From NCBI GenBank assembly GCA_963729975.1, contig CAVSPI010000001.1:2766625-2830624 (forward strand): a stretch of DNA of 64,000 nt. Direction: 5' to 3'. Position 1 is the stretch's first letter. Each line of letters begins with the position of its first letter. Position numbers and translations under genes: made by a program. This document shows, in pieces, positions 11,161-54,125 of the stretch. The stretch comes from an uncultured Acidobacteriota bacterium. GTDB lineage: Bacteria > Acidobacteriota > Vicinamibacteria > Vicinamibacterales > UBA2999. The notes beneath the pieces are model-generated. The model searched no databases. It was not told the origin of the DNA and saw only the letters and a list, made by a program, of their open reading frames with translations.

Positions 11161-11222
11161 CTGCCCGGTCCGAAAGGACCGGCCCTAACCGAAGCTGCCC
11201 GGTCCGAAAGGACCGGCCGCCC
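11161..11222. repeat. REP-like element: two tandem copies of CTGCCCGGTCCGAAAGGACCGGCC (hairpin GGTCC-GAAA-GGACC) between convergent genes.
   Basis: Direct inspection. The same hairpin family recurs at least 8 more times in the window. Confidence 0.8.
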
Positions 11223-11231
11223 GAATGTCGA

Positions 11232-12176
11232 TCAACTCCCCGGGTTCGGCCTCGCAATGCGCATCAGGCTCGGCGCGTCGAGCCGCGGTCCGTTGTACGC
11301 GGGCACATCGCCGAAGCGGCGATGCGCTTCCCAATCAGCGCGCGCCTCGGCGATCTCTTCCGGCGTGCGGGCGACGAAGTTCCACCACATCAGGATGGTC
11401 TCGGGAAACGGCGGACCGCCGAGCAGCAGCACGCGCGCGCCGGCAGCGCTGGCGAACGACGCCGCGGTCCGCTGCGTGCCGAGGTAATACAGCACGCGCT
11501 CCTCGAGCGGCTGCCCTTCGAACGTGCACCGGCCTTCGAGAACGAGGACTGCGTGCTCGAATGCCGCATCGAGCGGCATCGACAGTTCCCGCCCGCCGTA
11601 AATGCGCAGATCGACGCCGAGCAGCGGCGAGAAGTGGCCGGCCGCCGAACGCGCACCTTCGAGTCCACCGGCAAACACCTGCACCAGGCCGCCGGGTGAT
11701 TCGATGACCGGCACCTCGTCCAGATGCTGAAACGCCGCCGCCATGCCGCGCTGCGCGTCGGGCAGCGCCACCCAGATCTGCAGGCCGCTCAGCCGTCCGC
11801 TGTGCGCGCGCGGCGTCGTCTCGGCGTGCGCGATGCCGGCGCCGGCGGTCATCACGTTGACGCCGCCAGGACGCAGCACGGACTGGCAGCCGAGGCTGTC
11901 GTCGTGCGCCACTTCGCCGTCGAGCAGCCAGGTCACCGTCTGCAGGCCGATGTGCGGATGCGGCGCGACGTCCATCGGGCGCCCCTCGGAGAACGTCAGT
12001 GGCCCGTAGCGATCGAGAAAACACCAGGGACCGACGAGCCGTCGATCGCGCACCGGCAGGGCGCGCACAACCGCCAGATCGCCGAGCGCCACCTCGCGGC
12101 TGGGATAGGACTCGAACCGCCGCTGATCAGCTCCCAATGCCACGCATGCTTCGGCAGACACCGTCGGTCGACTCAT
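11232..12176 (-). CDS. Pirin-family protein (bicupin; quercetin 2,3-dioxygenase-like).
   Basis: MSRPTVS...LAVVRALPVRDRRLVGPWCFLDRYGP...MDVAPHPHIGLQTVTWLLDGEVAHDDSLG...GGVNVMTAGAGIAHAETTP...LQIWVALP. ATG confirmed at 12174-12176. The upstream 310 codons of the 625-aa track ORF are non-protein-like. Confidence 0.85.
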   Translation of the reverse strand: MSRPTVSAEACVALGADQRRFESYPSREVALGDLAVVRALPVRDRRLVGPWCFLDRYGPLTFSEGRPMDVAPHPHIGLQTVTWLLDGEVAHDDSLGCQSVLRPGGVNVMTAGAGIAHAETTPRAHSGRLSGLQIWVALPDAQRGMAAAFQHLDEVPVIESPGGLVQVFAGGLEGARSAAGHFSPLLGVDLRIYGGRELSMPLDAAFEHAVLVLEGRCTFEGQPLEERVLYYLGTQRTAASFASAAGARVLLLGGPPFPETILMWWNFVARTPEEIAEARADWEAHRRFGDVPAYNGPRLDAPSLMRIARPNPGS

Positions 12177-12254
12177 CGGTCTACGCTCCTCCTCGATCCT
12201 AGTGCACGGGAACGAATCACGGCTGCCGGTGTCGGATGCTCCCAGGAGGACCCC

Positions 12255-13085
12255 ATGCGTCGTGCGATCGCCGTCGTCGCGCTCCTGGTGCTGCTGCCCG
12301 CGCTGTCCGCCGCGCAGGTGACGCGCAACGAGCCTGGTCCCACGGAACGGCGTGCGAATGCCGTGACCCCCGAGAACCCGATTCCGCGGCGCACGCTCGG
12401 CGTTACCCCTGCGTATCCAGCCGAGGCGGCGGTCATCGACGCCAACGGACGCGTGCAGGTGCGCGTAACGCTGGACGGCCTCGGCCGTGTGGCCGAGGCG
12501 CGGCCGCTCAGTGCCTTCCCGCTCGTCTTCCCCGGCCAGCCGGCCACACCGGACGCGCTGCGCGCCGCGGCCGAAGCGCTTGTCAGATCTGCCGTCGACG
12601 CCGTGCGGCAATGGCAATACGAGTCTCCGGCGCAGCCGCCGATCGCCTTCACGGTCACCATCGACTTCACCCCGGCTGAGGAACCGACGCTCGTCTCGCA
12701 GGACGGTTCCCCACTTCCAGACCCGCGCGCGTGGGACCGCGACCGTCGGATCACGAGACCCGCTAAAGACCCATCGTACGTGCGCAACTGGGCACCAGGC
12801 ACGCTCCGCGTCGGCGACGACGTGCAGCAGCCGAGACGACTCGTGAATGTCGCGCCGGTCTACCCGCAGGGCGCACAGGAGCGGGGCATTCAAGGGCTGG
12901 TGATTGTCGACGCACGCGCCGACTCCACCGGACAGGTCGTCGAGGTGCGCCTGGTGCGCTCGATACCGCTGCTCGACGCGGCGGCGATCGAGGCGGTCCG
13001 GCAGTGGCGCTTCGAGCCGACCATCGTCGACGGCCAGGCGGTGCCGGTGGTGATGACGCTGGCCATCAACTTCAGTCTTCCGTGA
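12255..13085 (+). CDS. Secreted TonB C-terminal-domain protein with two TonB_C-like modules.
   Basis: AGGAGGA RBS at 12244-12250 precedes ATG 12255. Signal peptide MRRAIAVVALLVLLPALSAAQV. Two copies of the TonB-C motif are present (...PAYPAEAAVIDANGRVQVRVTLDGLGRVAEARPL... and ...VAPVYPQGAQERGIQGLVIVDARADSTGQVVEVRLVRSIPLLDAAAIEAVRQWRFEP). Confidence 0.75.
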   Translation: MRRAIAVVALLVLLPALSAAQVTRNEPGPTERRANAVTPENPIPRRTLGVTPAYPAEAAVIDANGRVQVRVTLDGLGRVAEARPLSAFPLVFPGQPATPDALRAAAEALVRSAVDAVRQWQYESPAQPPIAFTVTIDFTPAEEPTLVSQDGSPLPDPRAWDRDRRITRPAKDPSYVRNWAPGTLRVGDDVQQPRRLVNVAPVYPQGAQERGIQGLVIVDARADSTGQVVEVRLVRSIPLLDAAAIEAVRQWRFEPTIVDGQAVPVVMTLAINFSLP

Positions 13086-13161
13086 TCGCACGCATGCGCC
13101 GCCACTCACGCCTCAACCGAGTGCGCCAGCTACAATCCGCCGCATCCACACACATCCTTTC

Positions 13162-13587
13162 GTGCATCGACAGGGGTTCGCCAGCCGCTGGACGTGGGTG
13201 GCGATGCTGGCGCTGGCAGTTGGACTGGCGCTCCGCGTCGGACAGTTCCTCGCCCGTCCATCGCTCTGGGTGGATGAAGCGGCGGTCGCGCGGAACATCC
13301 TCGATCGCGACCTCGCGGGCCTGCTGTCTTCACCACTGGACTACGGCCAGGTCGCACCGCCCGGCTTTCTGCTGCTCGTCGAGTTGTGCAGCCGGCTGTT
13401 CGGCGGCGGCGAATACAGCCTGCGCCTCGTCCCGCTCATCGCCGGCAGCGTATCGCTGTTCGTCTTTCACGCGCTCGCACGCCGCCACCTGTCGCCGCCA
13501 GGAACCGCCGTCGCCCTGCTGTTGTTCGCGGCCACGCCGCTCGTGCTCTTCTCGTCGAATCTGAAGCCGTACGCCTACGAGGCGTAG
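13162..13587 (+). pseudogene. N-terminal ~140 aa fragment of a GT39/ArnT-like membrane glycosyltransferase, truncated by TAG and followed directly by a REP hairpin.
   Basis: MHRQGFASRWTWVAMLALAVGLALRVGQFLARPSLWVDEAAVARNILDRDLAGLL...GFLLLVELCSRLFGGGEYSLRLVPLIAGSVSLFVFHALARRHL resembles the first 3-4 TM segments of 4-amino-4-deoxy-L-arabinose-transferase-like proteins. Full-length members are ~500 aa. Confidence 0.45.
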
Positions 13588-13632
13588 CTATGGCCGGTCG
13601 GACGGACGGGCTACGAGGTCGGGTAGCCGGCG

Positions 13633-13662
13633 GTAGGGCCGGTCCTTTTGGACCGGCCCTAC
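13633..13662. repeat. REP-like perfect palindrome GTAGGGCCGGTCC-TTTT-GGACCGGCCCTAC.
   Basis: Direct inspection. It lies between a convergent gene fragment and alkB. Confidence 0.8.
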
Positions 13663-13669
13663 CGAGCTG

Positions 13670-14329
13670 TCAGTACTGCCGGAACGTCAGGTTGAAGCGG
13701 CCTTGCATCGCCAACGCCGGCGGCGCCGTCCCGGAAACGATGCGCGAGACGCCGTGGTAGCGCAACCGCGCCGGTCCGCCGAATACGAAGACGTCGCCCG
13801 ACTCCAGCCACACGCTCTCCACCGGATCACGGCGGCGCAGGCCGCCGAAGAGAAAGCGCGCAGTGTCGCCGAGCGAGATCGAGACGACCGGCCATCCGGC
13901 ACGGATCGACTCGACCCCTTCATCCTTGTCCTGATGCAGGCCCATGCGGCCGTCAGCGTCGTAGAAGTTGATCACGGCGATGTCAGGATGCAGCGCGAAC
14001 CCCGCACTCGCGGCAAGGTCCGCCGCCATCGCCACCCAGGCGTCGGGCACCGCGGCCACGGGCGCGTTGTCGTAGTCGGCGCGCGTCGCCTCGTAGGTGT
14101 AGGTGCGCGCGTTCCAGTGGCGGCCCAGGCAGGTCATGCGGACACGCATCGTGCCGCCGCCGCGGACGGTCGGCACGTAACCGCCCGCGGGGCCGTCCAT
14201 GATCGCGCGGCTGCGCGCCACCAGCGCGGTCTGCTCGTCGGCCGACAGCCAGGACCTGAGCCAGACGGCGCCAGGTCCCATCTCCACCCGCTCGCGGGGC
14301 CGCTCGAGGCCGGCCAGCAGCGACGCCAT
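13670..14329 (-). CDS. alkB: Alpha-ketoglutarate/Fe(II)-dependent dioxygenase AlkB (DNA/RNA alkylation repair).
   Basis: MASLLAGLERPRERVEMGPGAVWLRSWLSADEQTALV...INFYDADGRMGLHQDKDEGV...PVVSISLGDTARFLF...ESGDVFVFGGPARLRYHGV carries the HxD...H 2OG-Fe motifs. ATG at 14329 has AGGA 4 nt upstream. The track ORF begins 7 codons earlier at a TTG. Confidence 0.85.
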   Translation of the reverse strand: MASLLAGLERPRERVEMGPGAVWLRSWLSADEQTALVARSRAIMDGPAGGYVPTVRGGGTMRVRMTCLGRHWNARTYTYEATRADYDNAPVAAVPDAWVAMAADLAASAGFALHPDIAVINFYDADGRMGLHQDKDEGVESIRAGWPVVSISLGDTARFLFGGLRRRDPVESVWLESGDVFVFGGPARLRYHGVSRIVSGTAPPALAMQGRFNLTFRQY

Positions 14330-14353
14330 CGTTCCTGCGCTCGAGGACAACCG

Positions 14354-15583
14354 CTACCGCGCGGGCTCGAGCGTGAGCAGCGCCCCGTCATCCTCGTCGG
14401 TGAGGACATAGAGCAGTCCATCGGGTCCCTGACGGACGTTGCGGATGCGCTGCCGTAGATCCACGAAGAACGCTTCGCGCCGGACTTCCTCCCAGTTCTC
14501 GTTGAAGACGATGCGATGCATCTGCCCGGTGCCGGGGATGCGGCCAAACTGCAGTCCGCCGACGAACAGGTTGTTCTTCCACGCCGGGAAGCGATCGCCG
14601 GTGTAGAACGTCATGCCGGAAATTGCGATGGAGGGCGTCCACACCAGCACCGGGTCCTCGAATCCCTGCTTCATCGTCTCCGCCGAGACGCGCGCGCCGC
14701 TGTACTGCCGACCGTAGCTGACAATCGGCCAGCCGTAGTTGCCGCCGGCCTTGAGGATGTTGACCTCGTCGCCGCCGAGCGGGCCGTTCTCGTTCTGCCA
14801 CACCGCCCCGGTCGCCGGATGGATGGTCATGCCGAGCATGTTGCGGTGACCGAGCGAGTAAATCTCTGGCTTGTGGCCGGCGCGGCCGACAAACGGGTTG
14901 TCTGGCGGGACGCTGCCGTCGTCGCGGAAGCGCAGGATCTTGCCGAAATGGCTGTTCGGGTTCTGCGCGACTTCGTCGTTGGCGCCGCCGACAGCCATGT
15001 AGAGAAGGCCGTCCCGGCCGAACGTCAGGCCCATGCCGGCTGCCGGGCCGCCGCCCACGGCATCGGCCACGAACAGCTCCTTCACGTCCACCAGCGTCAT
15101 GCCATCGAGACGGCCGCGCAGCAGTGCTGATGTATGTGCCTTCTCACCAACCGACTTGGTGAAACTCATGTAGACGAGCCGCGTCTCGGCAAAGCGCGGA
15201 TGCAGCGCAATGTCCATGAGGCCGCCCAGCGAGGCGTTGTGGACCGCGGGGATGCCGGCGATCGGCGTGGGATCGAGGACACCCTTGCGCATGATGCGCA
15301 GCCGGCCTGGCCGCTCGGTGATGAGCATGTTGCCGTCCGGCATGAACGCCAGACTCCACGGATGCGACAGGCCCTTCGTCACCGTGACGCGCACCGGCCC
15401 CTGCTCGGCGGTGTCGATGCTGAAGGGGCTGTTCGGCAGCGGCTTCGCCGGCATCGCCGGCGCTGGCGGCGGAGCGGCACCTTGCCCGCGTGCCTGGCCG
15501 GACAGCGGCGCAGTGACGGCGACCAGCGCGGCCGCGAGTGTCAGGCCGGACAGCGTGCCACGACGAGATGAGAACATAGACAT
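14354..15583 (-). CDS. Soluble PQQ-dependent sugar (glucose/sorbosone) dehydrogenase, beta-propeller, secreted.
   Basis: ATG at 15583 with GGAG upstream. Signal peptide MSMFSSRRGTLSGLTLAAALVAVTAPLSGQA. GLSHPWSLAFMPDGNMLITERPGRLR...IYSLGHRNMLGMTIHPATGAVWQNENGPLGGDEVNILKAGGNYGWP is typical of the GSDH family. Confidence 0.85.
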   Translation of the reverse strand: MSMFSSRRGTLSGLTLAAALVAVTAPLSGQARGQGAAPPPAPAMPAKPLPNSPFSIDTAEQGPVRVTVTKGLSHPWSLAFMPDGNMLITERPGRLRIMRKGVLDPTPIAGIPAVHNASLGGLMDIALHPRFAETRLVYMSFTKSVGEKAHTSALLRGRLDGMTLVDVKELFVADAVGGGPAAGMGLTFGRDGLLYMAVGGANDEVAQNPNSHFGKILRFRDDGSVPPDNPFVGRAGHKPEIYSLGHRNMLGMTIHPATGAVWQNENGPLGGDEVNILKAGGNYGWPIVSYGRQYSGARVSAETMKQGFEDPVLVWTPSIAISGMTFYTGDRFPAWKNNLFVGGLQFGRIPGTGQMHRIVFNENWEEVRREAFFVDLRQRIRNVRQGPDGLLYVLTDEDDGALLTLEPAR

Positions 15584-15635
15584 CAGGAAGGCTCCAGGAT
15601 GAATACCGCAGTCGGTCGCAGGCTGGGCGGCGCCC

Positions 15636-17155
15636 TCAGCGGCGACGCGACCCGCCGACGATACCACCGAGCAGTCCGCGCAAGATCTGCCGGCCGACCT
15701 GGGTGCCGACGGTGCGCGCCGCCTGCTTGGCCATCGTTTCCATCATGCCCTGCCGCCGGCCCGTACCCCACAGGAAGTCGTTGATGGCGCTGCCCGACTC
15801 GGGCTTTCCTTTCGGCGCTGCGGCCGCCGGTGCGGCGGGGACCGGCGCCGCCGGAACGGGCGGCGGCGCGGTGGCGCGGCGGGCCAGCATCTCGTAGGCC
15901 GACTCGCGGTTGACCGCGGTGTCGTACTTGCGCGCCGACCGGACTGCGCGCACGCACCGCCGCGCGCTCCTCGGCCGTGATCGCACCCATGCGGCAGCGC
16001 GGCGGGCGCGATCAGCGTCCGCTCGACCGGCATCGGCACGCCCTTGTCCTGCAGCGTCGACACCAGCGCCTCGCCGACGCCCAGCTTCGAGATCGCCGCC
16101 GCGACGTCGAGCCTCGGATTCGGCGACGAAGGTCTCGGCGGCCGACGCGCACCGCCTTCTGGTCGCGCGGCGTGTACGCGCGCAGCGCGTGCTGGATGCG
16201 GTTGCCGAGCTGGCCGCAGGATCTCGTCGGGCACGTCGTCGGGGAACTGCGAGCAGAAGTACACGCCCACGCCCTTCGAGCGGATCAGCCGCACCACCTG
16301 CTCGACGCGCTGCCGCAGCGCCGGCGGCGCGTCGTCGAACAGCAGGTGCGCTTCGTCGAAGATGAACACCAGCTTCGGCGTTGTCCAGGTCGCCGACTTC
16401 GGGCAGGTTCTCGAACAGTTCCGACAGCAGCCACAGCAGGAAGCTGGAATAGAGGCGCGGCTTCAGGATCAGCTGATCGGCGGCCAGGACGTTGATGACG
16501 CCGCGGCCGCTCGAGGTCGGTGCGCATGCAGGTCGGCCAGCTCCAGCGCCGGCTCGCCGAAGAAGCGGTCGCCGCCGCTCGCGCTCGAGCGACAGCAGCG
16601 CGCGCTGGATGGCGCCGATCGACTGCGCGCTGACCAGACCGTAGCTCGTCGAGATCTCCTTGCGCGTGTCGGCGACGCAGGCCGAGCAGCGCGCGCAGGT
16701 CGTCCAGGTCGAGCAGCAGCAGGCCGTGGTCGTCGGCCAGCTTGAACGCGATGTCGAGCACGCCGGTCTGCGTGTCGTTCAGCTCGAGGATGCGCGCCAG
16801 CAGCGTCGGGCCCGATCTCGCTGACCGTGGTGCGCACCGGGTGGCCCGGCTTGCCGTACAGGTCCCAGAAGACCACCGGGCTCGGCTCGTGGCGCGTAGC
16901 CGTCGAGCCCGATGCTGTGCGACGCCGCTGCGGCATCGCGTCGTTGCACGTGCCCGGCACGGCCAGTCCGGCGACGTCGCCCTTCACGTCGGCCATGAAC
17001 ACCGGCACGCCCATGCGCGAGAAACCTTCGGCCAGCATCATCAGCGAGACGGTCTTGCCGGTCCCGGTGGCGCCGGCGACCAGCCCGTGGCGGTTGCCAT
17101 ACTTTCCGAGCAGCACGACCGGCTGCTCGCCTTTCCCGATCGTTATCGATGTCAC
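15636..17155 (-). pseudogene. HerA-like ATPase (DUF853, E. coli YjgR family) broken into at least 4 frame segments.
   Basis: In order 5'>3' on the minus strand: 16469..17155 [65 protein letters not shown] (Walker A); 16285..16761 [26 protein letters not shown]; 15743..16369 [51 protein letters not shown] (Walker B DEAH); 15636..15986 ...GMMETMAKQAARTVGTQVGRQILRGLLGGIVGG (YjgR C-terminus). All four segments are in different frames. Confidence 0.75.
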
Positions 17156-17745
17156 CCTTGACTCCGCCCTGTATCGACGGCAGGCAGTCTGAGCTCGCCG
17201 TCGTCATCAGGCCAACCTTCGTAGACGATGTGATCCACGTCACCGAACTGGACGATACGGCCCGGCACGAACCCGAGCCGTTCGGCGACGCGCCGGGACC
17301 GCCCGTTGTCCGCCTGGATCAGCGAGACGACGTGGTCGTAGCGCCATTTCCTGAATGCCGCGTCGCGAACAGCCGTCGCCGCCTGCGTGGCATAGCCGCG
17401 TCCCCAGTACGGCCGATGCAGCAGCCAGCCGACCTCGGCATGTGCCGTCCCTTCGATGACCTGCGTCGCCAGGCCGATCTGACCGACGGGCGTGCCGGTT
17501 GCCCGCTCGGCCGCGAGCCAGAGTCCGTGGCCGTCGCGGCGGTAGCGATCCAGCTGACGGCCAATCCACTCCTCGCACTCCGTGCGGGAGTAGCGATGCC
17601 CGTAGAAGTGCGTCACGTCGGCATCGGCCATCATGACGGCCACGAAGTTCAGGTCGTCGAGCGTCATCTCGCGCAGCAGCAGCTGCTCCGTCTCGAGCAC
17701 GACGCGAGGCAGCCGGTCTGGCACCGTCAGGGCGTTTGCATGCAT
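17152..17745 (-). CDS. GNAT N-acetyltransferase (RimJ/RimL-like, Acetyltransf_3).
   Basis: ...LLLREMTLDDLNFVAVMMADADVTHFYG...WIGRQLDRYRRDGHGLWLAAERATGTPVGQIGL...GWLLHRPYWGRGYATQAATAVRDAAF. ATG confirmed at 17743-17745. Confidence 0.8.
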   Translation of the reverse strand: MHANALTVPDRLPRVVLETEQLLLREMTLDDLNFVAVMMADADVTHFYGHRYSRTECEEWIGRQLDRYRRDGHGLWLAAERATGTPVGQIGLATQVIEGTAHAEVGWLLHRPYWGRGYATQAATAVRDAAFRKWRYDHVVSLIQADNGRSRRVAERLGFVPGRIVQFGDVDHIVYEGWPDDDGELRLPAVDTGRSQG

Positions 17746-17762
17746 GGTGAGAGGGAGGCGTA

Positions 17763-18317
17763 ATGTCGCGTACTACTGCGCTCGGAGTCGTGCTGATCAT
17801 AGCCGTGAGCGGTGCCGCCTGCGACCGGCCGCAGGTGGCCCCGGTCGACGATGTGGGGGGAGCCCCGGTTGCAGAGGTGGGACCGGTCGCCTGGCGCGTG
17901 AGCGAACGCGGCGCCGGCCCCATCCTCGCAGGCATGACGATCGTGGAATCCGAACGGGCGGCGGCCACCGCGCTGACGTTGCCCGATGCGACGAGCGAGT
18001 GCATCTATGCCCGCGTGCCCTCCGGACCGGATGGCCTGCTCTTCATGGTCGTGTCCGGCCGCATCGCCCGCGTCGACGTGACCGCAGCGGGCGTGCCGAC
18101 CGAAGGCGGCATCGTGGTTGGCGACAGCGAAGCCCGGGTGCGCGAGGTCTACGGCGAGCGGGTCACCTCGACGCCGCACAAGTACACCGATGGCCACTAC
18201 CTGATGGTGGCATCCGGCGCCGGCCACCGGCTCGTCTTCGAGACCGATGGGCAGCGGGTCACGCGCTATCGCGGCGGCCGGATGCCGGAAGTCGAGTGGG
18301 TGGAGGGCTGTTCGTAG
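17763..18317 (+). CDS. Hypothetical lipoprotein.
   Basis: MSRTTALGVVLIIAVSGAAC has signal-peptide plus lipobox-like features. A compact 184-aa ORF in a tight gene array. No family signature was recognised. Confidence 0.55.
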   Translation: MSRTTALGVVLIIAVSGAACDRPQVAPVDDVGGAPVAEVGPVAWRVSERGAGPILAGMTIVESERAAATALTLPDATSECIYARVPSGPDGLLFMVVSGRIARVDVTAAGVPTEGGIVVGDSEARVREVYGERVTSTPHKYTDGHYLMVASGAGHRLVFETDGQRVTRYRGGRMPEVEWVEGCS

Positions 18318-18323
18318 GACGAC

Positions 18324-18776
18324 TCAGTCGCTTGCCGGCGGGCCGCTGGCGGCGGCCGACAGCTGGCGGATGGCGCCGACGTGATAGGCCAGGTGGACGA
18401 CACTGCCGAGCGAACCGGTGAGGGCGACCTCGCTGAAGTCCTGCAGCTTACCGGCCGCGTCCATCCAGTCGTGTGCCTGCTGCCGCAGCTGCGCCCGCAG
18501 CTCGCGCCAACCGTCCTCGCTCACCTGCTGCCGTTTCCAGCTGGCAGCGAAGTCTGCCGAAGCCCAGGGATTTTCTTCTCCGTGCGCCCAGCGGTTCAGC
18601 AACTCCAGTCCATACCGCACGTGATCGACGTGTGCGGCAACCGACGACCGGCCGCCCGGACGCGCACTCGCGTCCGCTGCCGACAGCACATCGAGCGAGG
18701 CCAGCAGGCCGGGGTCGCCTTGATTGAGGACGTAGGCCACGCCCCGCGGCGGCCCATCGACGAGCTCGCGCAACAA
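18324..18776 (-). CDS. DinB/YfiT-like (DinB_2) four-helix-bundle metalloenzyme-family protein.
   Basis: ...VAAHVDHVRYGLELLNRWAHGE...WRELRAQLRQQAHDWMDAAG...SVVHLAYHVGAIRQL shows the His triad spacing typical of DinB_2. Confidence 0.6.
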   Translation of the reverse strand: MLRELVDGPPRGVAYVLNQGDPGLLASLDVLSAADASARPGGRSSVAAHVDHVRYGLELLNRWAHGEENPWASADFAASWKRQQVSEDGWRELRAQLRQQAHDWMDAAGKLQDFSEVALTGSLGSVVHLAYHVGAIRQLSAAASGPPASD

Positions 18777-19006
18777 AGAGGCGATCGATTCACGCGGTAC
18801 CGGCTTCGAGCGGCTTCATCTCCCCTCCGGACTCCTTCGGCAGCAAGGCTCACACCGATACCGCCAGCGTTCGCCGTCACATGGCGCCACTGCCAGTTCA
18901 TCGTTCCCTGGTCGCCCTTCTTCTGGAAAATTATAGACGCCGCATTCCACGCGATGTGTCATGCCGGCGCCCTTGCCTCATGCATAGCCGTGCGATCATC
19001 GGACTG

Positions 19007-19777
19007 ATGACTGGCTGGCGTCTCGCGCGAACGGCTGCTTGTGCCACACTGCTGTCGATGGCGGGCATCGCCCCGGGCGCCGCGCAAAGCCCGTCCGATG
19101 AATACGCCGCCCTCTTCGTGACGCTGGCAGAGCAGGCGCTGCGCGATTCGCGCCTGTCCGCGGCCATGCCCTGCCTGCCGCACTGGCTGGCAGGCAGCAA
19201 TCACCTGGTCGTCGCGGTATCGATGGACGGAAGCCGTGCGGGACTCGCACGCGGCGATCGGCTGCGGCAGATCGGCACGGTGACGTTGACCGGCAGCGGC
19301 ACCGGCCTGTGGGACGCAGCGGTCCGCGCACTCAGCCGCGGACAGCCGCGTTATCGCGTGGACGTGGTGAGAGACGGGCGCGGCGTGCAGCTCGATCTGC
19401 CATGCGCCGCGGACCGCGCGGAACGATTGTTCACCGCGGAACGCGAGATGTGGACGTCGATCACGCGCCGCGCGTGGGACCTGTGCGTGGCGCGCGGGGC
19501 GGACATGGTGGACGCGTTCGGCGCCGACTTCTCGCCACCGTTGATGATCATGGCGCGCTGCACGGCGGCGCGATCGTCGGGCGCCGATGCGGCGGTCGTC
19601 AATCGACTCGCGCACGCCCTGCTGTCGGAGCTCGCATCAGATCCGCAGCCTTCGCCCGACCTGCACGAGCAGCTGCTGCTGACGCTGCGCGACCTCGACG
19701 ACAGCCGCGCGGCAGGAGGCACCGACTACGCCACGCCGTTGCGCACGCGCATGTTGCAACTCGGCATCATGCCGTGA
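19007..19777 (+). CDS. Hypothetical secreted protein.
   Basis: MTGWRLARTAACATLLSMAGIAPGAAQ (signal peptide) followed by a 230-aa Ala/Arg/Leu-rich ORF. No recognisable family. The start is uncertain; the ORF track opens at 18881. Confidence 0.4.
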   Translation: MTGWRLARTAACATLLSMAGIAPGAAQSPSDEYAALFVTLAEQALRDSRLSAAMPCLPHWLAGSNHLVVAVSMDGSRAGLARGDRLRQIGTVTLTGSGTGLWDAAVRALSRGQPRYRVDVVRDGRGVQLDLPCAADRAERLFTAEREMWTSITRRAWDLCVARGADMVDAFGADFSPPLMIMARCTAARSSGADAAVVNRLAHALLSELASDPQPSPDLHEQLLLTLRDLDDSRAAGGTDYATPLRTRMLQLGIMP

Positions 19778-19796
19778 CTGGCAACATTCCCGGCTG

Positions 19797-20363
19797 TCAG
19801 GCGAACAGCACGTCGAGAGGCAGCGCAAACCCCGTGAGGAGCGGTGTGGTGAGCTGATCGTGCGCGCGTGTCGACAGCGTCTCCTCCACCGACAGCGCGT
19901 CGGTTGCCGCGCGGCGGCACACCGTGACCGACTGCCGATGCGGATCCACCAGCCAGTACTCCCGCACGCCAGCCCGGTCGTAGAGCTGCCGCTTCAGCCG
20001 TTCGTCGCGCCGGCGCGTGCCTTCCGATAGCACTTCGACCACGAGCGCTGGCGCACCCTGCACGTTGGCCTTCGTGAGGATGTCCGACTGGTCGCCGGTG
20101 ACCATGAGCAGATCGGGTTCGACCACATCCCATCGACCCATCACGACGTCGAGCGGCGCAACAAACACGCGCGCGGTGCCCGGATGCCAGCGCAGGTGCT
20201 GTTCGATCTCGAAGTGCAGGCGGCCCACGAGCTCCTGATGCCGAAGGTTCGGACTGGCTGTCACGTAGTGCTCGCCGTCGATGATCTCGTGTCGCATCCC
20301 ATCGTCGGGGATGCGAACGAAGTCGTCGTAGGTAAGCCGATGATCGTGCTGTGGTGGGTACAT
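19797..20363 (-). CDS. Uma2-family endonuclease (DUF820, putative PD-(D/E)XK restriction-endonuclease-like).
   Basis: MYPPQHDHRLTYDDFVRIPDDGMRHEIIDGEHYVTASPNLRHQELVGRLHFEIEQHL...VFVAPLDVVMGRWDVVEPDLLMV...PALVVEVLSEGTRRRDERLKRQLYDRAGVREYWLVDP is a classical Uma2 signature. ATG confirmed at 20361-20363. Confidence 0.85.
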   Translation of the reverse strand: MYPPQHDHRLTYDDFVRIPDDGMRHEIIDGEHYVTASPNLRHQELVGRLHFEIEQHLRWHPGTARVFVAPLDVVMGRWDVVEPDLLMVTGDQSDILTKANVQGAPALVVEVLSEGTRRRDERLKRQLYDRAGVREYWLVDPHRQSVTVCRRAATDALSVEETLSTRAHDQLTTPLLTGFALPLDVLFA

Positions 20364-20539
20364 CGCCTTTCTCCTCGCGCCATCGTACATCGTCACTCCT
20401 TGCGGAGCGACAGTTGCTAGAGCGATGCCGGCGCGATTCACGCGTGAATGCCGCGGCAGGAGGGCCACGGTACGCAGAAACTGCAATGTGGCGAAACCAG
20501 CAACTGGCAGCAACCGCGACGCGCTGCAGCGGTCGACGC

Positions 20540-20929
20540 TCACGTGCCTTGCGTCGATACCCACCACGTGTTGCCGGCCGGGTCCTTGACCCCGCCGCGC
20601 TTATCGGGATCGCCGTCGCTCCGCTTCGGCGGCTGGACCGCGACACCGCCTGCGTCGAGCGCGCGCTGGTAGGCCGCGTCCACGTCCTTCACATAAAGGT
20701 GCATCCACACCGGAAACGCCGGGAACTCCGGCGACGCGTCCGCCATCATCACCACGGTGTCGTCGATCTTCATCTCCGCATGCATCACCGAGCCATCGGG
20801 CTTGTCGAAGCGGCGCAGTTCCGTGGCGCCGAAGGCCTGCTTCAGGAAGTCGACGACGCGCTGCACACTGGGCACCACGAGATAGGGCGCCAGGCTGGTG
20901 TAGCCGTCAGGCTTGTAGTCGATGCTCAT
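20540..20929 (-). CDS. VOC-family protein (glyoxalase/bleomycin-resistance fold, PhnB-like).
   Basis: MSIDYKPDGYTSLAPYLVVPSVQRVVDFLKQAFGATELRRFDKPDGSVMHAEMKIDDTVVMMADA...MHLYVKDVDAAYQRALDAGGVAVQPP...DPAGNTWWV. Confidence 0.8.
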   Translation of the reverse strand: MSIDYKPDGYTSLAPYLVVPSVQRVVDFLKQAFGATELRRFDKPDGSVMHAEMKIDDTVVMMADASPEFPAFPVWMHLYVKDVDAAYQRALDAGGVAVQPPKRSDGDPDKRGGVKDPAGNTWWVSTQGT

Positions 20930-20940
20930 CGACGTCTCGT

Positions 20941-21040
20941 CCGTTATCGCGCGGCGCCGTTCCTGCTCCGGCTCAAACCGGAGCCTACACGCCCAGCTCC
21001 GACGTTCTTGCTCCGGCTGAATCCGGAGCCTACGTTTCCT
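20941..21040. repeat. REP-like pair CTCCGGCT-CAAA-CCGGAGCCTAC ... CTCCGGCT-GAAT-CCGGAGCCTAC.
   Basis: Direct inspection. Two hairpins with the shared CCTAC tail between convergent genes. Confidence 0.75.
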
Positions 21041-21888
21041 TACTCGCCGCGATGCGCGTCCGCGTGGTGCGGAATCGAGACGTGCTGCACGATCTCGGAG
21101 CCGATGCCAAGCTGTGCGATCACGCGCTGAGCGTGCTCGGGACGGCCCGTGGTCCAGAACTCCGTGCGCCCGTCCCGATCGCCCGCCGTCAGGCCATGCT
21201 GCTCGAGCCGCCGCCTCAGCTCGCGCGCGACGGCCACGGCCGGATTGACGATCGTCACCTGCGCGCCAGCGGCCTCCGCGATGAGCGGCGTGAGAAACGG
21301 GTAGTGCGTGCAGCCGAGGACGATGACGTCGGCGCCCTGGTCGACGAGCGGCCGCACATATTGTGCGACGAGGGCGCGCGTCTCGTCGCTCGCCAGTTCA
21401 CCGGCTTCCACACGTTCCACCAGTCCCGGGCACGGCTGCGCGGCAATGCGCGCGCCCTGCGCGTGTGCCGCCACGAGCCTGGCGAAGCGCGGGCTCGAGA
21501 GCGTTCGTGTCGTGGCCATGACGCCCACGACTCCCGTTCGCGTCAGCGCCGCGGCCGGTTTCACCGCGGGCTCGATGGCGACGATCGGCAGCGTGAAGCG
21601 CTGCCGCAGCAGGTCCACCGCGATGCCGGTCGCGGTGTTGCACGCGACGACGGCCGCCTTCACGCCACGAGCGTGCAGCCATTCGACGACGGCATGGGAG
21701 CGTGCGCGAATGACGTCGGGATCGCGATCCCCGTACGGCGCGTAGGCGGAGTCGGCGACATAGAGGAGGTGCTCGGACGGCAAGGCACGGCGGATCTCGC
21801 GCAGCACCGACAGGCCGCCGACGCCCGAGTCGAAGATACCGATGGGGCGCGTATCGTCGACGCGCGCTGAGGCCGCGTCAGCGGCCAC
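21040..21888 (-). CDS. murI: Glutamate racemase.
   Basis: IGIFDSGVGGLSVLREIRRALPSEHLLYVADSAYAPYG...AVVACNTATGIAVDLLRQRF.LPIVAIEP...VIVLGCTHYPFL. Catalytic Cys motifs CNTA and GCTHYP are present. Confidence 0.9.
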   Translation of the reverse strand: MAADAASARVDDTRPIGIFDSGVGGLSVLREIRRALPSEHLLYVADSAYAPYGDRDPDVIRARSHAVVEWLHARGVKAAVVACNTATGIAVDLLRQRFTLPIVAIEPAVKPAAALTRTGVVGVMATTRTLSSPRFARLVAAHAQGARIAAQPCPGLVERVEAGELASDETRALVAQYVRPLVDQGADVIVLGCTHYPFLTPLIAEAAGAQVTIVNPAVAVARELRRRLEQHGLTAGDRDGRTEFWTTGRPEHAQRVIAQLGIGSEIVQHVSIPHHADAHRGE

Positions 21889-21994
21889 AGGTCATCCGCG
21901 TGGCGGCGCCGCACGATGCGCAGGTGGTTACCGGCGTGATGCCTCCGATGGCGGCTATTGTCGCCGGAGCTGCGCCGCCGGCGCAATCAACCCG

Positions 21995-23244: not shown

Positions 23245-23254
23245 CCGCGTGAAC

Positions 23255-23617
23255 TCAGCTGGCGGCTGCCGAGAAATCCTCGACCGGTCGTACTTCGATC
23301 GAGCCGTCGCGCGCCGACGGAATGCGCGACGCGATCTGGATGGCGTCGTTCAGGTCGCGCGCGTCGATCAGGTAGAAGCCGCCGAGCTGCTCCTTGGTTT
23401 CGGCGAACGGGCCGTCGGTCGTCGACAGCTTGCCGTTGCGCAGCCGTACCGTGGTTGCCGTGTGCACCGGCTGCAGCGCTTCGCCAGCGACGTAGTTGCC
23501 GCTCTTCTTGACCGCCTCGGTGAAAGCCCAGTAGTCCGCCATCATGGCGTCGGACTCGCTCTTGGACATCGAGGCCATCTGCGATTCCTGGCTGTAAATC
23601 AGACATAGATACTTCAT
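23255..23617 (-). CDS. YciI-family (DGPF-domain) protein, the usual partner of SigJ-type ECF sigma factors.
   Basis: MKYLCLIYSQESQMASMSKSESDAMMADYWAFTEAVKKSGNYVAGEALQPVHTATTVRLRNGKLSTTDGPFAETKEQLGGFYLIDARDLNDAIQIASRIP. Its stop lies 11 bp upstream of the sigma start. Confidence 0.85.
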   Translation of the reverse strand: MKYLCLIYSQESQMASMSKSESDAMMADYWAFTEAVKKSGNYVAGEALQPVHTATTVRLRNGKLSTTDGPFAETKEQLGGFYLIDARDLNDAIQIASRIPSARDGSIEVRPVEDFSAAAS

Positions 23618-23640
23618 GAACGTCCTCCAACGCCCTTCGA

Positions 23641-23870
23641 CCGGGGCCGGCTGGAGCCGGATCCTACGACAGGGCAGGGTCGACTATTCGACGTGACACC
23701 AGCTAGTCGTTGGCGCGCGCCGGAATCGACAACGGTGCCGGAATTTCTTGGGCAGGTCCGAAAGGACCCGCCCTACAGACCGCTCCGGCTGACGCCGGAT
23801 CCCACGACTCGTAGGGCGTCGACCCGGCTGACGCCGGAGCCCGCGACAGCGTGAAACCGCTGCGGCTACT
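23641..23870. repeat. Cluster of REP-like hairpins (GGCTGGAGCCGGATCCTACG; CAGGTCCGAAAGGACCCGCCCTACAG; CTCCGGCTGACGCCGGATCCCACG; CCCGGCTGACGCCGGAGCCCGCG).
   Basis: Direct inspection of the 250 bp intergenic region between the yciI-like gene and the PQQ-ADH. Confidence 0.75.
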
Positions 23871-40387: not shown

Positions 40388-40497
40388 CGCAACGAGCGCC
40401 GTCAGCGCGATCGAGATCGACTTCAGAGAGACCTCCCCGTTCTAAACGCTCGAGACGCCATCCCGACGCTCACTCGACAGCTCGAACTCCTCGCTTG

Positions 40498-40530
40498 AGC
40501 ATTGAGCATTGAGCATTGAGCATTGGACGC
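40498..40530. repeat. Tandem heptamer (GAGCATT x4, equivalent to CAATGCT x4 on the minus strand), upstream of the DUF1304 gene.
   Basis: Direct inspection. It is the same CAATGC heptamer family as the inverted pair at 34719-34832. Confidence 0.85.
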
Positions 40531-45589: not shown

Positions 45590-45790
45590 GACGCACGGGC
45601 CGGTTCGAGCCGCCCGGCAGGCGGCGCGTCCGACAGGACGCGCCCTACGATGCAAAAGGACACGCCCTACGGTCGAAGGTCGCGCCGGGCCAGGGGAACG
45701 AACGCGCGACGGTGGGAAAAACGCGTCGGACGAGGGGAACGAACGCGCCGGGCGAGGGAATGACGTAGGGCCGGTCCGTTCGAACCGGCC
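45590..45790. repeat. REP-like cluster. Elements: GCGTCCGACAGGACGCGCCCTACG; GGACACGCCCTACGG; palindrome GTCGCGCCGGGCCAGGGGAACGAACGCGCGAC; direct repeat AGGGGAACGAACGCGC x2; and GTAGGGCCGGTCCGTTCGAACCGGCC.
   Basis: Direct inspection of the intergenic region between two convergent minus-strand genes. Confidence 0.75.
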
Positions 45791-45795: not shown

Positions 45796-46770
45796 TCACG
45801 GCCGATAGGGGCGTTCGCTGGCGCGCGCGGCGCTGAGCATGTTCGCCAGGCCGTAGTTGCCTTCGTGACAGGCGTACTCGTAGATCTCGTAGTCTGGCCT
45901 GGTGTCGAGGTCGAAGCGTACCGTCCACGGCTGCGTGTAGGTGGCCGGGTCGTGCACCGTGAACTCGTCGCGCAGTGTATCGGCATCCGTGCGCGTGAAC
46001 CGCTCGACGAGCCGCAGCGCCTGGCTGTGCGTCGCGCCGTTGCCGTTGCCGCCAATGCCGGTCCGATCGGTGAAGTTCGTCGTCTCGACGACGAGCGTGT
46101 CGCCGTCCCAGTGGCCGCGCGAATCGCCCATCCACATGGCCACGCCGGCACCGGCGTGCGCACGGCCGTCGAGCGGCACCACGCGCGCCTCGTGAATCAT
46201 CTCGTGGCTGATGACGACGACGCCGGGCGCCTGCAGGATGGAGGTGCCGTTGCCGTAGATCACCGGGATGATCGATCCGGCGACGCCGCGGCTGATGCAG
46301 CGGTCGTAGTTGGAGAAGTCGAGATGCGACGCTGGCAAGCCGCGTCCCTTCTGCGCCGCCTGCTGTGCATCGGCCCGGCGCTGCGCGTCGGGCGTCAGCG
46401 GCGGCACGCGGCCGTCGGGCGGATCGACGATCAGAGACGTCGCTCGCGACGGCAGCTCCGGCCGCTCGAGCCAGTGCCGAGACGCGTTGATCGCGGACGG
46501 GTCGCGCCGAGAACTCGCTCTCGGGCGCGCGGCCAGGTCCTTCGCCAGCTGCTCCTGGTTGCCCTTGACGCGCTCGGCGTACTCGTCGTCGGTGAGCCTG
46601 GACCGTGTGCCGAACGGCTCCGGCCGCTCAAATGGCACGCCGATCGAGTTGTCGCTCGTGTACGTGCCCTGCAGGTCGGGGTCGCCCCACGCCGTGCGCG
46701 GGGCCTGCGCGGCGAGTGCCGGCCGCAACAGTGCGAGCAGCAGGGCGGTCACGAGTGGCGGCTTCGTCAT
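45796..46770 (-). CDS. Secreted hypothetical protein; member 2 of the three-paralog family.
   Basis: Signal peptide MTKPPLVTALLLALLRPALAAQA. Shared motifs: ...HWDGDTLVVETTNFTDRTGIGGNGNGATHSQALRLVERFTRTDADTLRDEFTVHDPATYTQPWTV. Confidence 0.75.
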   Translation of the reverse strand: MTKPPLVTALLLALLRPALAAQAPRTAWGDPDLQGTYTSDNSIGVPFERPEPFGTRSRLTDDEYAERVKGNQEQLAKDLAARPRASSRRDPSAINASRHWLERPELPSRATSLIVDPPDGRVPPLTPDAQRRADAQQAAQKGRGLPASHLDFSNYDRCISRGVAGSIIPVIYGNGTSILQAPGVVVISHEMIHEARVVPLDGRAHAGAGVAMWMGDSRGHWDGDTLVVETTNFTDRTGIGGNGNGATHSQALRLVERFTRTDADTLRDEFTVHDPATYTQPWTVRFDLDTRPDYEIYEYACHEGNYGLANMLSAARASERPYRP

Positions 46771-52351: not shown

Positions 52352-52423
52352 GCTTCCTATTCTCACTCGTGTTCGACGTCACGATGGCAGCGCGCTTGCT
52401 CCGGCTTTGAACGGAGGAGCTGA

Positions 52424-52990
52424 ATGGCCAACGCCGCGCGCAGGAAGCGAACACGACAACAGGCGGTGACCACCGCCGCAGCCACGGCACGCCGGGCCAT
52501 CGGGCGAACGGTTGCGTCGGTCGTCGCCCGCGTGGCGCCGCCGGCGCACGACGCCGTCGCCCTGCTCGAGCGCGATCACCGGCGGATCGAGGACCTCGTG
52601 GCCCGCGGCGAGAAGACGACGGCACGGGCGACGACGCGGCGGCGGGAGCTGCTTCAGACGCTCACGGACGAGCTCGCTGCGCACGAGAAGATCGAGGAGC
52701 AGATCTTTTATCCGGCGCTCAAGCGCCACAGCAAAGCGCGCGAGCTCGTCCTCGAAGGCTACCAGGAGCATCACGTCGCCGACATCCTGGTGCGTGAGCT
52801 GCACGCCCTGCCGCCCACCGACGAACGCTGGGGCGCGAAGTTCAAGGTCCTCAAGGAGAACCTCGAGCATCACATCGAGGAAGAAGAAGGCGAGATGTTC
52901 AAGACGGCGCGCTCGGTGCTCAGCCCGGCCCAGATACAGGCGCTGGGTCAGCGGATGGCGGCCCTGAAGGAGCGCAACGGCCACCGCTGA
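52424..52990 (+). CDS. Hemerythrin (HHE cation-binding) domain protein.
   Basis: ...AVALLERDHRRIEDLVARGEKTT...LTDELAAHEKIEEQIFYPALKRH...VLEGYQEHHVADILVRELHALP...LKENLEHHIEEEEGEMFKTAR. The His/Glu ligand pattern is present. Confidence 0.8.
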   Translation: MANAARRKRTRQQAVTTAAATARRAIGRTVASVVARVAPPAHDAVALLERDHRRIEDLVARGEKTTARATTRRRELLQTLTDELAAHEKIEEQIFYPALKRHSKARELVLEGYQEHHVADILVRELHALPPTDERWGAKFKVLKENLEHHIEEEEGEMFKTARSVLSPAQIQALGQRMAALKERNGHR

Positions 52991-53070
52991 GGGCCAAAAT
53001 CCTGCGCTGGAGCCGCGGGTGACGATCGCGCTACACTTCCGCGCCCGGGATGTCCGGAGCTGGAGGTCGA

Positions 53071-53961
53071 ATGACAGCGCTCGCCCGCTCGCTCGCCGTC
53101 GTCGGTGTGCTTGGTGTCTTCTCCGCGTCGCTTTCGGCTCAATGGCCGGAGCAGAAGGATCCGCGCGCGCCGCGGACGGCGGACGGAAAAGTGGACCTGA
53201 CGGCACCAGCGCCCAAAACCGCGGACGGCAAGCCTGACCTGTCCGGCGTCTGGCAGAACGTCGGGCGCGGGCAGGGAGCGCCGCGCGAGGCGCTCAGCCT
53301 CGACGAAAAACCGACGGCCACCTTTGGCAACATCGGTGCGGGATTCAAGGATGGGTTGCCGCTGCAGCCGTGGGCGAAGGCGCTGCTCGACAAGCGCCGC
53401 GCCGACAACAGCAAGGACAACCCGGACGTCTGGTGCCTGCCGCTCGGCAACCAGCAGTTCAACGTGCACAGCTTCCCGCGCAAGATCATCCAGACCCCTG
53501 GTGTCATCGTGATGCTCTACGAGACACACATGGGCATCCGGCAGATCTTCACCGACGGCCGGGCGCTGCCGAAGAACGACCCGCAGCCGTGGTACTTCGG
53601 CTACTCGGTCGGCCGCTGGGAGGGCGACACCCTGGTGGTGGAATCGACCGGCTTCAAGGACGAGGGGTGGCTGGACATCAACGGCAGCCCGCTGACCGAG
53701 CAGGGGCGCACCATTGAACGGTTCCGCCGGACCAACTACGGGACGATCGAGATCGAACAGACGATCGACGACCCGAAGGCCTATACGCGACCGTTCACGG
53801 TGCGGCTCAACTGGCGGCTGATGCCCGACAGCGAGATCATGGAAATGGTCTGCCTCGAGAACAACCAGTCGATCCATCACCTGGTGGGTGCGGCCGGCCC
53901 CGACGGTCCGCCGCCGGCGGCAAGCGCACCGGTGCCCGCGGTGGCGCGGCCGACGAACTAG
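53071..53961 (+). CDS. Secreted hypothetical protein; member 3 of the three-paralog family.
   Basis: Signal peptide MTALARSLAVVGVLGVFSASLSAQW. Shared motifs: LQPWAKALLDKRR, WCLPLGNQ, PWYFGYSVGRWEGDTLVVESTGFKDEGWLDINGSPLTEQGRTIERFRRTNYGTIEIEQTIDDPKAYTRPFTV. Confidence 0.75.
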   Translation: MTALARSLAVVGVLGVFSASLSAQWPEQKDPRAPRTADGKVDLTAPAPKTADGKPDLSGVWQNVGRGQGAPREALSLDEKPTATFGNIGAGFKDGLPLQPWAKALLDKRRADNSKDNPDVWCLPLGNQQFNVHSFPRKIIQTPGVIVMLYETHMGIRQIFTDGRALPKNDPQPWYFGYSVGRWEGDTLVVESTGFKDEGWLDINGSPLTEQGRTIERFRRTNYGTIEIEQTIDDPKAYTRPFTVRLNWRLMPDSEIMEMVCLENNQSIHHLVGAAGPDGPPPAASAPVPAVARPTN

Positions 53962-54125
53962 GCTTGGCGGGTCCGAAAGGACCCGCCCTACGCAACAGCG
54001 GGTCCGAAAGGACCCGCCCTACGCAACAGCAGTCCGAAAGGACCGGCTCTACTCTCACGGTCACCAGCAGGCCGGTCCGGATAGACCCGCGGCCACCGTA
54101 GGGCCGGTTCTTTCGGACCGGCCCT
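53958..54125. repeat. REP-like cluster: GGGTCCGAAAGGACCCGCCCTACGCAACAGC x2, then AGTCCGAAAGGACCGGCTCTAC, then GTAGGGCCGGTTCTTTCGGACCGGCCCTCC.
   Basis: Direct inspection. About 170 bp of hairpin repeats directly after the paralog-3 stop. Confidence 0.85.

Follow-up and report, generated by a model that had tools for sequence, protein, structure and literature searches.

We examined a 64-kb stretch of DNA (69% GC) from an uncultured member of the Vicinamibacterales, an order of the Acidobacteriota (contig CAVSPI010000001.1, positions 2,766,625 to 2,830,624). We refer to the whole stretch as the window, and all window counts below are for those 64 kb. Between its genes lie approximately 24 short hairpin units at nine intergenic sites, the same nine at which an initial annotation of the sequence had placed recurrent palindromes. 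We consider it highly probable that they are repetitive extragenic palindromic (REP) sequences of the GTAG type, arranged in part as arrays resembling bacterial interspersed mosaic elements (BIMEs), and plausible targets of a REP-associated tyrosine transposase (RAYT). REPs, BIMEs and RAYTs have long been known and are well studied in gammaproteobacteria.

Hairpin families and their sites

We compared pattern counts with dinucleotide-preserving shuffles, and for no pattern did any shuffle reach the observed number, so the units are far more frequent than in shuffled sequence. With up to two mismatches allowed, GGTCCGAAAGGACC occurred 10 times in the window (0.42 expected from the shuffles). 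With up to three mismatches, GTCCGGCGAAAGCCGGAC, which has the core GTCCGGC-GAAA-GCCGGAC, occurred 6 times (0.19 expected) and CTCCGGCTGANNCCGGAG, with the core CTCCGGCT-GANN-CCGGAG, 10 times (1.94 expected). The heptamer GCCCTAC was found 12 times against an expectation of 3.73. A census of the units gave 14 of a family A plus one half unit, 6 of a family B and 4 of a family C.

The 15 family A reads align in one register to the consensus GGC[CG][GC]GTCC-GAAA-GGAC[GC][CG]GCC-CTACG; the core can be summarized as GGC[CG][GC]GTCC-[G/A]AAA-GGAC[GC][CG]GCC, then CTAC. The hairpin thus has a 9-bp stem, GGCGGGTCC-GAAA-GGACCCGCC, with a 4-nt loop and a CTAC foot on its 3' side; the stem first given, GGTCCG-AAAG-GACC, had been parsed off by one. 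Read on the opposite strand, a 5' GTAG foot precedes the hairpin, which is the canonical REP layout. Each unit is a short, near-perfect GC-rich palindrome able to form a stem-loop, with GTAG at its 5' foot. Stem cells were paired in 91% of cases, with 7 double-sided changes. None of 500 shuffles reached this level of pairing, which dropped to 25-48% when the partner columns were slid. The inner two variable stem positions covary (CG/CG, GG/CC, AC/GT, GC/GC). Folded as single-stranded DNA, the window units reach -9 to -13 kcal/mol, with z-scores of -3.5 to -8.7 across hairpins; the strongest DNA fold, at -21.7 kcal/mol, is that of the double-foot palindrome at 13633-13662.

Loop and foot are less uniform than the stem. 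Half of the family A units, 7 of 14, have the loop GAAA; AAAA, CAAA, GCGA, GACA or GAAC is found in the rest. CTAC directly follows the stem in 10 of 14, the remainder being point variants, and decayed feet in several window units read CTAA, GCCC, GTAC, CTGC, CCCAC, CCCGC or CCTGT. The CTAC part of the tail proposed earlier is thus conserved; its extension, G(C)RACAGC, occurs in only about 5 window units and is not kept in other genomes. An unfiltered search of the entire window with a covariance model of family A recovered the 14 physical units alone above the noise level, none of them inside a gene.

Families B and C share the core (G)GTCCGGC-TGAN/GAAA-GCCGGAC(C) or CTCCGGC...GCCGGAG, followed by CCTAC, CCCAC or CCTGT. 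They are a second REP type with a degenerate foot, so that two REP families, A and B/C, stand side by side in the window.

Gene boundaries around the sites were set by Pfam and NCBIfam scans of the flanking open reading frames (ORFs). The sites are as follows.

Site 1, 11162-11222, plus strand: two direct family A units (11162-11188 and 11196-11222), CCGGTCC-GAAA-GGACCGG, with decayed feet (CTAA, GCCC); between the pirin stop at 11232-11234 (minus) and the next minus-strand glyoxalase gene.
Site 2, 13633-13662, no strand assigned: double-foot family A palindrome GTAGGGCCGGTCC-TTTT-GGACCGGCCCTAC, 15 bp when folded; 8 nt off the AlkB-like stop at 13670-13672 (minus), between convergent ORFs.
Site 3, 20965-21034, plus strand: two direct family B units (20965-20989 and 21010-21034), GCTCCGG-CTSAAN-CCGGAGC-CTAC; racemase stop at 21040-21042 (minus, 6 nt off) on one side, glyoxalase start at 20929 (minus) on the other.
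Site 4, 23645-23845, plus strand: mixed, with family B at 23645-23668, family A at 23751-23776 (GGC-A-GGTCC-GAAA-GGACC-C-GCC-CTAC), family B at 23782-23806 and 23821-23845, and an orphan GTAGGGC head at 23811-23817; PQQ-dehydrogenase stop at 23866-23868 (minus) on one side, YCII start at 23617 (minus) on the other.
Site 5, 27158-27299, mixed strands: BIME-like array of four family A units, 27158-27183 (plus), 27200-27225 (minus), 27232-27257 (plus, foot GTAC) and 27274-27299 (minus, foot CTGC), with stem subtypes CCGG and CACG/CGTG alternating; starts 3 nt past the HTH_25 stop at 27153-27155 (plus), with the SUI1 gene beyond.
Site 6, 36436-36460, plus strand: lone B/C unit GGTCCGGC-TGAA-GCCGGACC-CCAC; 3' of a truncated PadR fragment and 5' of a secreted-protein paralogue at 36506-37324 (plus).
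Site 7, 39903-40013, plus strand: four head-to-tail family C units with a period of 29, AGGTCCGGC-GAAA-GCCGGACC-CTGTAAGC; begins 3 nt past the stop at 39898-39900 of a 683-aa gene (plus), with the convergent DUF1304 stop at 40055-40057 (minus).
Site 8, 45623-45790, mixed strands: family A at 45623-45648 (plus, GGCGCGTCC-GACA-GGACGCGCC-CTAC), half unit at 45652-45670 (plus) and family A at 45765-45790 (minus); stop of the secreted-protein paralogue 45796-46770 (minus) on one side, TPR gene (minus) on the other.
Site 9, 53966-54123, mixed strands: three direct family A units (53966-53991, 53997-54022 and 54027-54052) with a period of 31, then a degenerate stretch and an inverted family A unit at 54098-54123 (minus); begins 5 nt past the stop of the secreted-protein paralogue 53050-53961 (plus), with the PBP gene (54294) downstream.

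All nine sites lie between Pfam-supported genes, 3-20 nt off stop codons, and none is in an intergenic region between divergent genes. The placement is thus extragenic and post-stop, between unidirectional or convergent genes, as was first noted. At 27158-27299 the units alternate in orientation and between two subtypes, which makes this array a BIME; the remaining sites are direct arrays or singlets, not BIMEs. Tandem copies, also noted at the outset, were recovered by TRF as arrays at 39903-40009 (period 29, 3.7 copies, 98% matches) and 53967-54052 (period 31, 2.8 copies), and other sites hold several units as well. Between them, the singlets, the tandem arrays and the one alternating array of extragenic, GTAG-footed GC-rich hairpins show the REP/BIME behavior that had been suggested.

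Tandem-array periods of 29-31 nt, together with a palindromic core like that of operator sites, could also point to another class of repeat: miniature inverted-repeat transposable elements, a degenerate CRISPR array, or the operators of a DNA-binding protein. We give this hardly any credence. The units are 25-30 nt long and have neither terminal inverted repeats (TIRs) nor target-site duplications. The arrays are spacerless, the units abut, and the period equals the unit length; on these grounds the arrays of period 29 and 31 nt were each rejected as CRISPR arrays. Copies are scattered past the stops of unrelated genes, not in promoters, and the same element is found at hundreds of places in many genomes.

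The three paralogous secreted proteins named above (272-324 aa, each with a signal peptide) are encoded at 36506-37324 (plus), 45796-46770 (minus) and 53050-53961 (plus), and each directly adjoins a REP site. None matched Pfam or NCBIfam; they have many homologues, at 30-53% identity, in REP-bearing Vicinamibacterales tiles (L093, L066, L026, L030, L027, L076 and others). Two apparently truncated genes close upstream of REP sites are possibly pseudogenes or mis-framed ORFs. The first ~48 residues of 35876-36478 (plus) match only positions 1-32 of 101 of TIGR03433, the acidobacterial PadR paralogue model, and the 141-aa ORF 13162-13587 (plus) corresponds only to the N-terminal quarter of a PMT_2/Agl23-type glycosyltransferase. 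The interior of site 8 holds an unrelated imperfect 22-nt tandem repeat (45681-45758, 3.7 copies, consensus CGCGCCGGACGAGGGGAACGAA), and a similar GAAC-rich repetitive stretch lies 3' of the RAYT gene on a related contig (L113, 10530-10620). A perfect heptamer repeat, (TTGAGCA) x 4.4, is present at 40495-40525, in the intergenic stretch that separates the DUF1304 gene from the following gene on the minus strand.

Distribution among relatives

We scanned relatives, one genome per GTDB species in 8-kb tiles, with the pattern GTCCRAAAGGACNNGCCCTAC, which demanded the foot and left the 5' arm of the stem free. It matched at least 111 tiles in at least 23 assemblies, and among the matches listed 22 of the 23 assemblies were labelled Vicinamibacterales, Acidobacteriota or Acidobacteria. 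The one other match, CAZGLC010000341.1, is a 3.9-kb contig in a 'Bifidobacteriaceae' metagenome-assembled genome (MAG). It is probably a mis-binned Vicinamibacterales contig, because it carries a REP that scores 42 bits with the family A model. The initial annotation had called the family genome-specific. Since the identical core and foot occur in at least 22 species-level Vicinamibacterales or Acidobacteriota assemblies, the family is instead lineage-wide.

The window itself was not present among the 111 tiles listed, where the best DNA match reached 77%, and a metagenome scan based on the PQQ-dehydrogenase found its nearest relative at 79%. For the circularly permuted ATP-grasp protein of the window, named Vicinamibacterales homologues have approximately 74% identity and a JGI soil contig 93%. 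This protein and the fragment from the acidobacterial PadR paralogue family locate the window within or close to the Vicinamibacterales. Look-ups of two window proteins gave no exact match, and a megablast search of plasmids yielded only distant Burkholderia/Ralstonia hits, at 75-78% identity, in a single gene cluster.

On the matched tiles the family A model found at least 157 copies at E <= 1e-3. In the relatives' copies among the matches listed, 99.6% of stem cells are paired, the unconstrained 5' arm included, with 75 double-sided changes and six recurrent stem variants. Of 150 such copies, 79 have the loop GAAA and 54 have AAAA, so that a GNRA tetraloop, initially taken as defining, is not a constant feature here or in the window. 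Sequence past CTAC is not conserved in these copies. The foot counts in relatives are no independent evidence, since the search pattern demanded the foot; the GTAG foot was independently seen on hairpins flanking all eight RAYT genes described below. A crude test of frame and GC3 placed 11 of 156 copies (7%) within sequence that codes through them, compared with 49% of random positions. The motif is thus neither confined to the window nor found mainly inside coding regions of the relatives. Family B/C units occur at approximately 30 places in the matched tiles, typically as GGTCCGGC-TGAA-GCCGGAC-ACTAC and often adjoining a family A unit.

To estimate density we used 860 kb of metagenome contigs picked by a PQQ-dehydrogenase homologue, a sample unbiased as to REPs. 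Strict GTAG-footed perfect hairpins numbered 0.02 per kb in this sample and 0.125 per kb in the window, an approximately six-fold difference. Some PQQ-dehydrogenase orthologues have other stem variants of GTAG hairpins downstream (for example at 6757 in L123). The orthologue in L065 (70% amino acid identity) has no downstream REP, but its neighbor gene is a different one, so the comparison is uninformative.

RAYT genes of relatives

As initially reported, no RAYT is encoded in the window: a scan of its ORFs for the HUH and Y..NP motifs and a tblastn search with the RAYT of L041 were both negative. None of the genes that neighbor RAYT in relatives is present there either. When the motif scan (HUH ... 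Y..NP) was applied to all ORFs of the matched tiles, it returned one protein, of 157 aa, at L041 194-664 (minus), with the motifs DHVHLL (DHVH), LWQ and YIVANP. This protein matches Pfam Y1_Tnp (E 4e-12) and NCBIfam NF047646, 'REP-associated tyrosine transposase' (114.7 bits, cutoff 80). Four of its homologues were also scanned with NF047646, and all five pass, at 93-122 bits. Its top solved structure is E. coli TnpAREP, 4ER8 (E 9e-9). We found 2157 homologues at E <= 1e-10, which some sources name RayT; across a set of 120, the motifs read DH[VAL]H, LWQ and Y[IV]xxNP and the median length was 158 aa.

Family A REPs, of two subtypes and in both orientations, crowd the two flanks of the L041 RAYT gene, and GGCGGGTCCGAAAGGACCCGCCCTAC, at 53966 in the window, is identical to the copy at L041 733-771. 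We read seven further loci with homologues at 57-78% identity (L112, L113, L114, L116, L198, L199 and L200). GTAG-footed hairpins in both orientations stand on both sides of the RAYT gene in all eight loci, which bears out the suggestion that such hairpins are plausible RAYT targets. The eight proteins are 157-207 aa long. In the flanks in L041 and L112, REP subtypes GGCGGG and GCCGGG alternate. The bottoms of the flanking stems are conserved (GTAGGGCGGGT.., GTAGGCCGGGT..); upper stems and loops vary with the RAYT lineage. A REP variant that changes along with its RAYT is the pattern of co-evolution described for REPtrons (PMC2817692). A RAYT dedicated to family B/C was sought among these loci, and none of the eight has B-type flanks.

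The gene order Sortilin/BNR - RAYT - Metallophos - MacB is shared by L112 and L198, and NAD_binding_2 - RAYT - ABC_tran - FtsX - aaRS by L113 and L200. Such synteny is in keeping with a single-copy gene that stays in place, and less so with an insertion sequence (IS) that hops. Because gene neighborhoods are kept between genomes, it indicates that at least two RAYT lineages have been inherited vertically, each with its own REP variant (short or long stems).

Judged by motifs, length and short perfect REPs, the Vicinamibacterales RAYTs appear to fit nearest to subclass 2.5, or Bertels group 3. Subclass 2.5 has the motifs DH[LF]H, WQ and YI[VI]ANP, a length of 151 aa and short REPs (Quentin et al. 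2018, PMC6006769), and the group 3 enzyme of S. maltophilia recognizes short perfect REPs and needs the GTAG foot to cleave at a CT dinucleotide (PMC8266576). The likeness to these REPtrons in S. maltophilia and Pseudomonas (PMC2817692, PMC8266576, PMC6006769) extends to short perfect GTAG REPs with an 8-9 bp stem and a 3-4 nt loop, to more than one REP type per genome, and to a RAYT of about 150-160 aa with D-H-u-H, WQ and YI[VI]ANP that is flanked by REPs in both orientations. At positions 100 and 101 the Vicinamibacterales RAYT has D and R, in agreement with the description of subclasses 2.5 and 2.7. Unlike subclass 2.5, which occurs mostly in xanthomonads and pseudomonads, the host here belongs to the Acidobacteriota; the middle HUH residue is mostly V or A, not L or F; and the Vicinamibacterales lineage has a stem sequence (GGCGGGTCC) and an A-rich loop of its own.

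The E. coli REPs and BIMEs share the GTAG foot, the extragenic, post-stop placement between unidirectional or convergent genes, and the alternation of two REP subtypes in opposite orientation seen at 27158-27299. E. coli TnpAREP (group 2, subclass 2.2) supplies the top solved-structure match noted above, and its GTAG-contacting residues W94, Q95 and R104 align with W, Q and R in the Vicinamibacterales RAYT. However, E. coli REPs are longer with an obligatory stem bulge, whereas the window stems are short and perfect, and the E. coli RAYT motifs are DHLH, WE and YIHYNP compared with DHVH, WQ and YIVANP. The TIR-flanked tyrosine transposases (TIRYTs) and class 3 TnpA-Y1 enzymes of Terriglobus, Koribacter, Acidobacterium and Granulicella (PMC3733652, PMC6006769) come from the same phylum and are likewise IS200-like tyrosine HUH nucleases. 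Their flanks are long TIRs or atypical structures with a CnGA foot, and the class 3 motif is Y----Q; the Vicinamibacterales enzymes have Y---NP and canonical GTAG REP flanks. As in the REPINs of Pseudomonas fluorescens, inverted REP pairs with a short spacer are present at 27158-27225, 27232-27299 and 54027-54123. Most window units are instead singlets or direct tandem copies, with only direct or single units at 7 of 9 sites, and a REP doublet is not evidently the unit of spread.

By analogy with studied REP systems, and with the TnpAREP work established in E. coli, S. maltophilia and Marinomonas (PMC8266576, PMC2817692), a single-stranded 5'-GTAG plus hairpin would be the substrate of a RAYT/TnpAREP encoded by the genome. 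Such an enzyme would be a single-copy HUH/Y1 nuclease that binds the folded hairpin, with the GTAG foot positioning cleavage at a nearby CT dinucleotide. Strand transfer would follow, and REPs would be spread and reshuffled in intergenic DNA. The source genome presumably encodes a RAYT of this kind outside the window, and that enzyme would be the one to cleave and move these REPs.

Several points weigh against reading the window hairpins as REPs served by a RAYT. With no RAYT in the 64 kb, we infer the cognate enzyme from relatives. Those relatives are only 62-79% identical in amino acid sequence for a housekeeping-type gene, with one metagenome contig at 93%. Family B/C units flank the RAYT gene in none of the eight loci. 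Feet are decayed in many window units (CTAA, GTAC, CTGC, CCCAC, CCTGT), so some members of the family may have ceased to be substrates. REPs typically exceed 100 copies per genome, and the count given here, about 24 units, is that of the 64-kb window.

Turnover, orientation and significance

A JGI contig (L117) that is 88-90% identical to window 53026-59380 allowed us to compare an orthologous site. Right after the same stop codon it has a single unit, GGCGGGTCC-GGAA-GGACCCGTC. The window is approximately 137 nt longer there: it has two more units in tandem, then a degenerate stretch and a unit in inverted orientation, making four REPs (three tandem and one inverted) to the one in L117. Arrays therefore change over a short evolutionary scale. 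On this comparison, either RAYT action or recombination between direct repeats could be the cause. In the interval 5081-5888, L117 also has a dienelactone-hydrolase gene (DLH, 236 aa), between the PBP gene and the REP site. In the corresponding window interval, 54131-54294, only the DLH upstream region and approximately 75 nt of its 3' end are left, in what looks like a recent internal deletion beside the expanded REP array.

The same difference could arise if the units were fossils, spread by an ancestral RAYT that has since been lost here and altered by replication slippage and tandem-copy recombination. Slippage or unequal recombination between direct repeats can account for the change in copy number, and the L117 unit looks as if the first window unit had given its 5' half and the third its 3' tail. 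About half of the window units have mutated feet or mismatched stems, and genomes with REPs but without tnpAREP have been reported (PMC6006769). We nevertheless think that loss of the enzyme is improbable. The lack of a RAYT in the window speaks for it, but 64 kb is a small share of a genome and RAYT is usually single-copy, so this absence tells little. Several units are perfect and identical to REPs that flank RAYT genes in relatives, such as the GGCGGGTCCGAAAGGACCCGCCCTAC copy at 53966, and the window is about six-fold denser in REPs than unbiased related contigs.

Orientation is uneven. Of the approximately 24 units, 20 share one genomic orientation, with hairpin-CTAC on the plus strand irrespective of flanking-gene direction, and the 5'-GTAG-hairpin that a RAYT could recognize is thus mostly on the minus strand of the window. 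At 7 of the 8 sites that are not palindromic, most units are on the plus strand. This asymmetry may be real and mechanistic, the footprint of a RAYT working on the lagging-strand template as IS200/IS605 transposases do, although we regard that as doubtful; local tandem duplication and chance could equally have produced it. GC skew in the window is flat. In 110 tiles from relatives, REP orientation correlated significantly with neither GC skew (Spearman -0.15, p 0.11) nor coding-strand bias (Spearman -0.06, p 0.55), and same-contig tiles were too few to judge REP orientation.

The orientation also bears on whether these could be RNA hairpins selected by the host, as intrinsic terminators or 3'-end stabilizers, with their REP likeness and closeness to RAYT genes incidental. 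The folds are stable, the units sit 3-20 nt past stops and never between divergent genes, and REPs of E. coli have reported effects on mRNA stability and on termination (PMC8266576). The gene that precedes the site is on the minus strand in four cases and on the plus strand in three, yet one genomic orientation prevails among the units. Transcripts therefore carry GAAA loops at some sites and UUUC at others; the four sites flanked by minus-strand genes would give UUUC instead of GAAA, a further reason why the GNRA tetraloop is not general. Termination requires neither the GTAG/CTAC foot, the part conserved past the stem, nor tandem or alternating arrays. That the repeats flank all eight RAYT genes would be coincidence. 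We consider selection for an RNA function very unlikely.

An intrinsic (Rho-independent) terminator, one of the roles first suggested, was rejected on direct inspection: CCCTACG comes after the stems, or GC-rich sequence when the other strand is read, with no T/U run, and a terminator scan of 11000-28000 called none of the REP hairpins themselves. Over the whole window, no Rfam family matched at gathering score and ARAGORN found nothing. REPs inserted just past stop codons would be transcribed into mRNA 3' ends and might serve there as stabilizing structures, as a by-product and not the cause of sequence conservation. RNA effects such as 3' hairpin stabilization are therefore possible, but the data give no support for them as a selected function, because the units are oriented both ways with respect to transcription, nothing at the RNA level explains the conserved foot and the T-run is lacking.

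Previous surveys had placed REPs elsewhere. In 2013, GTAG REPs were described in Proteobacteria, Cyanobacteria, Chloroflexi and the PVC phyla, with TIR-flanked tyrosine transposases instead in Acidobacteria (PMC3733652), and a 2018 survey assigned class 3 (Y----Q, CnGA foot) to Acidobacteria (PMC6006769). Our literature search found no report linking Vicinamibacteria with REPs. The repeat is of a known kind, and what is new is its host lineage, the little-studied order Vicinamibacterales; NCBI's present RAYT model already picks up the relatives' enzyme, and the understanding of what REPs are is unchanged.

If the strand bias proves real, it would be a genomic read-out of how REPs spread. The system behind it would be a subclass-2.5-like RAYT, passed down vertically at syntenic positions throughout an acidobacterial order, whereas subclass 2.5 was described in gammaproteobacteria. 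More immediately, a canonical REP/RAYT system with two REP families is present in a lineage that is abundant in soil. This can be used in the annotation of intergenic DNA and of MAG assemblies, in which contigs break at REP arrays and the arrays pass for small ORFs, in strain typing in the manner of REP-PCR, and in comparative work on the co-evolution of RAYTs and REPs.

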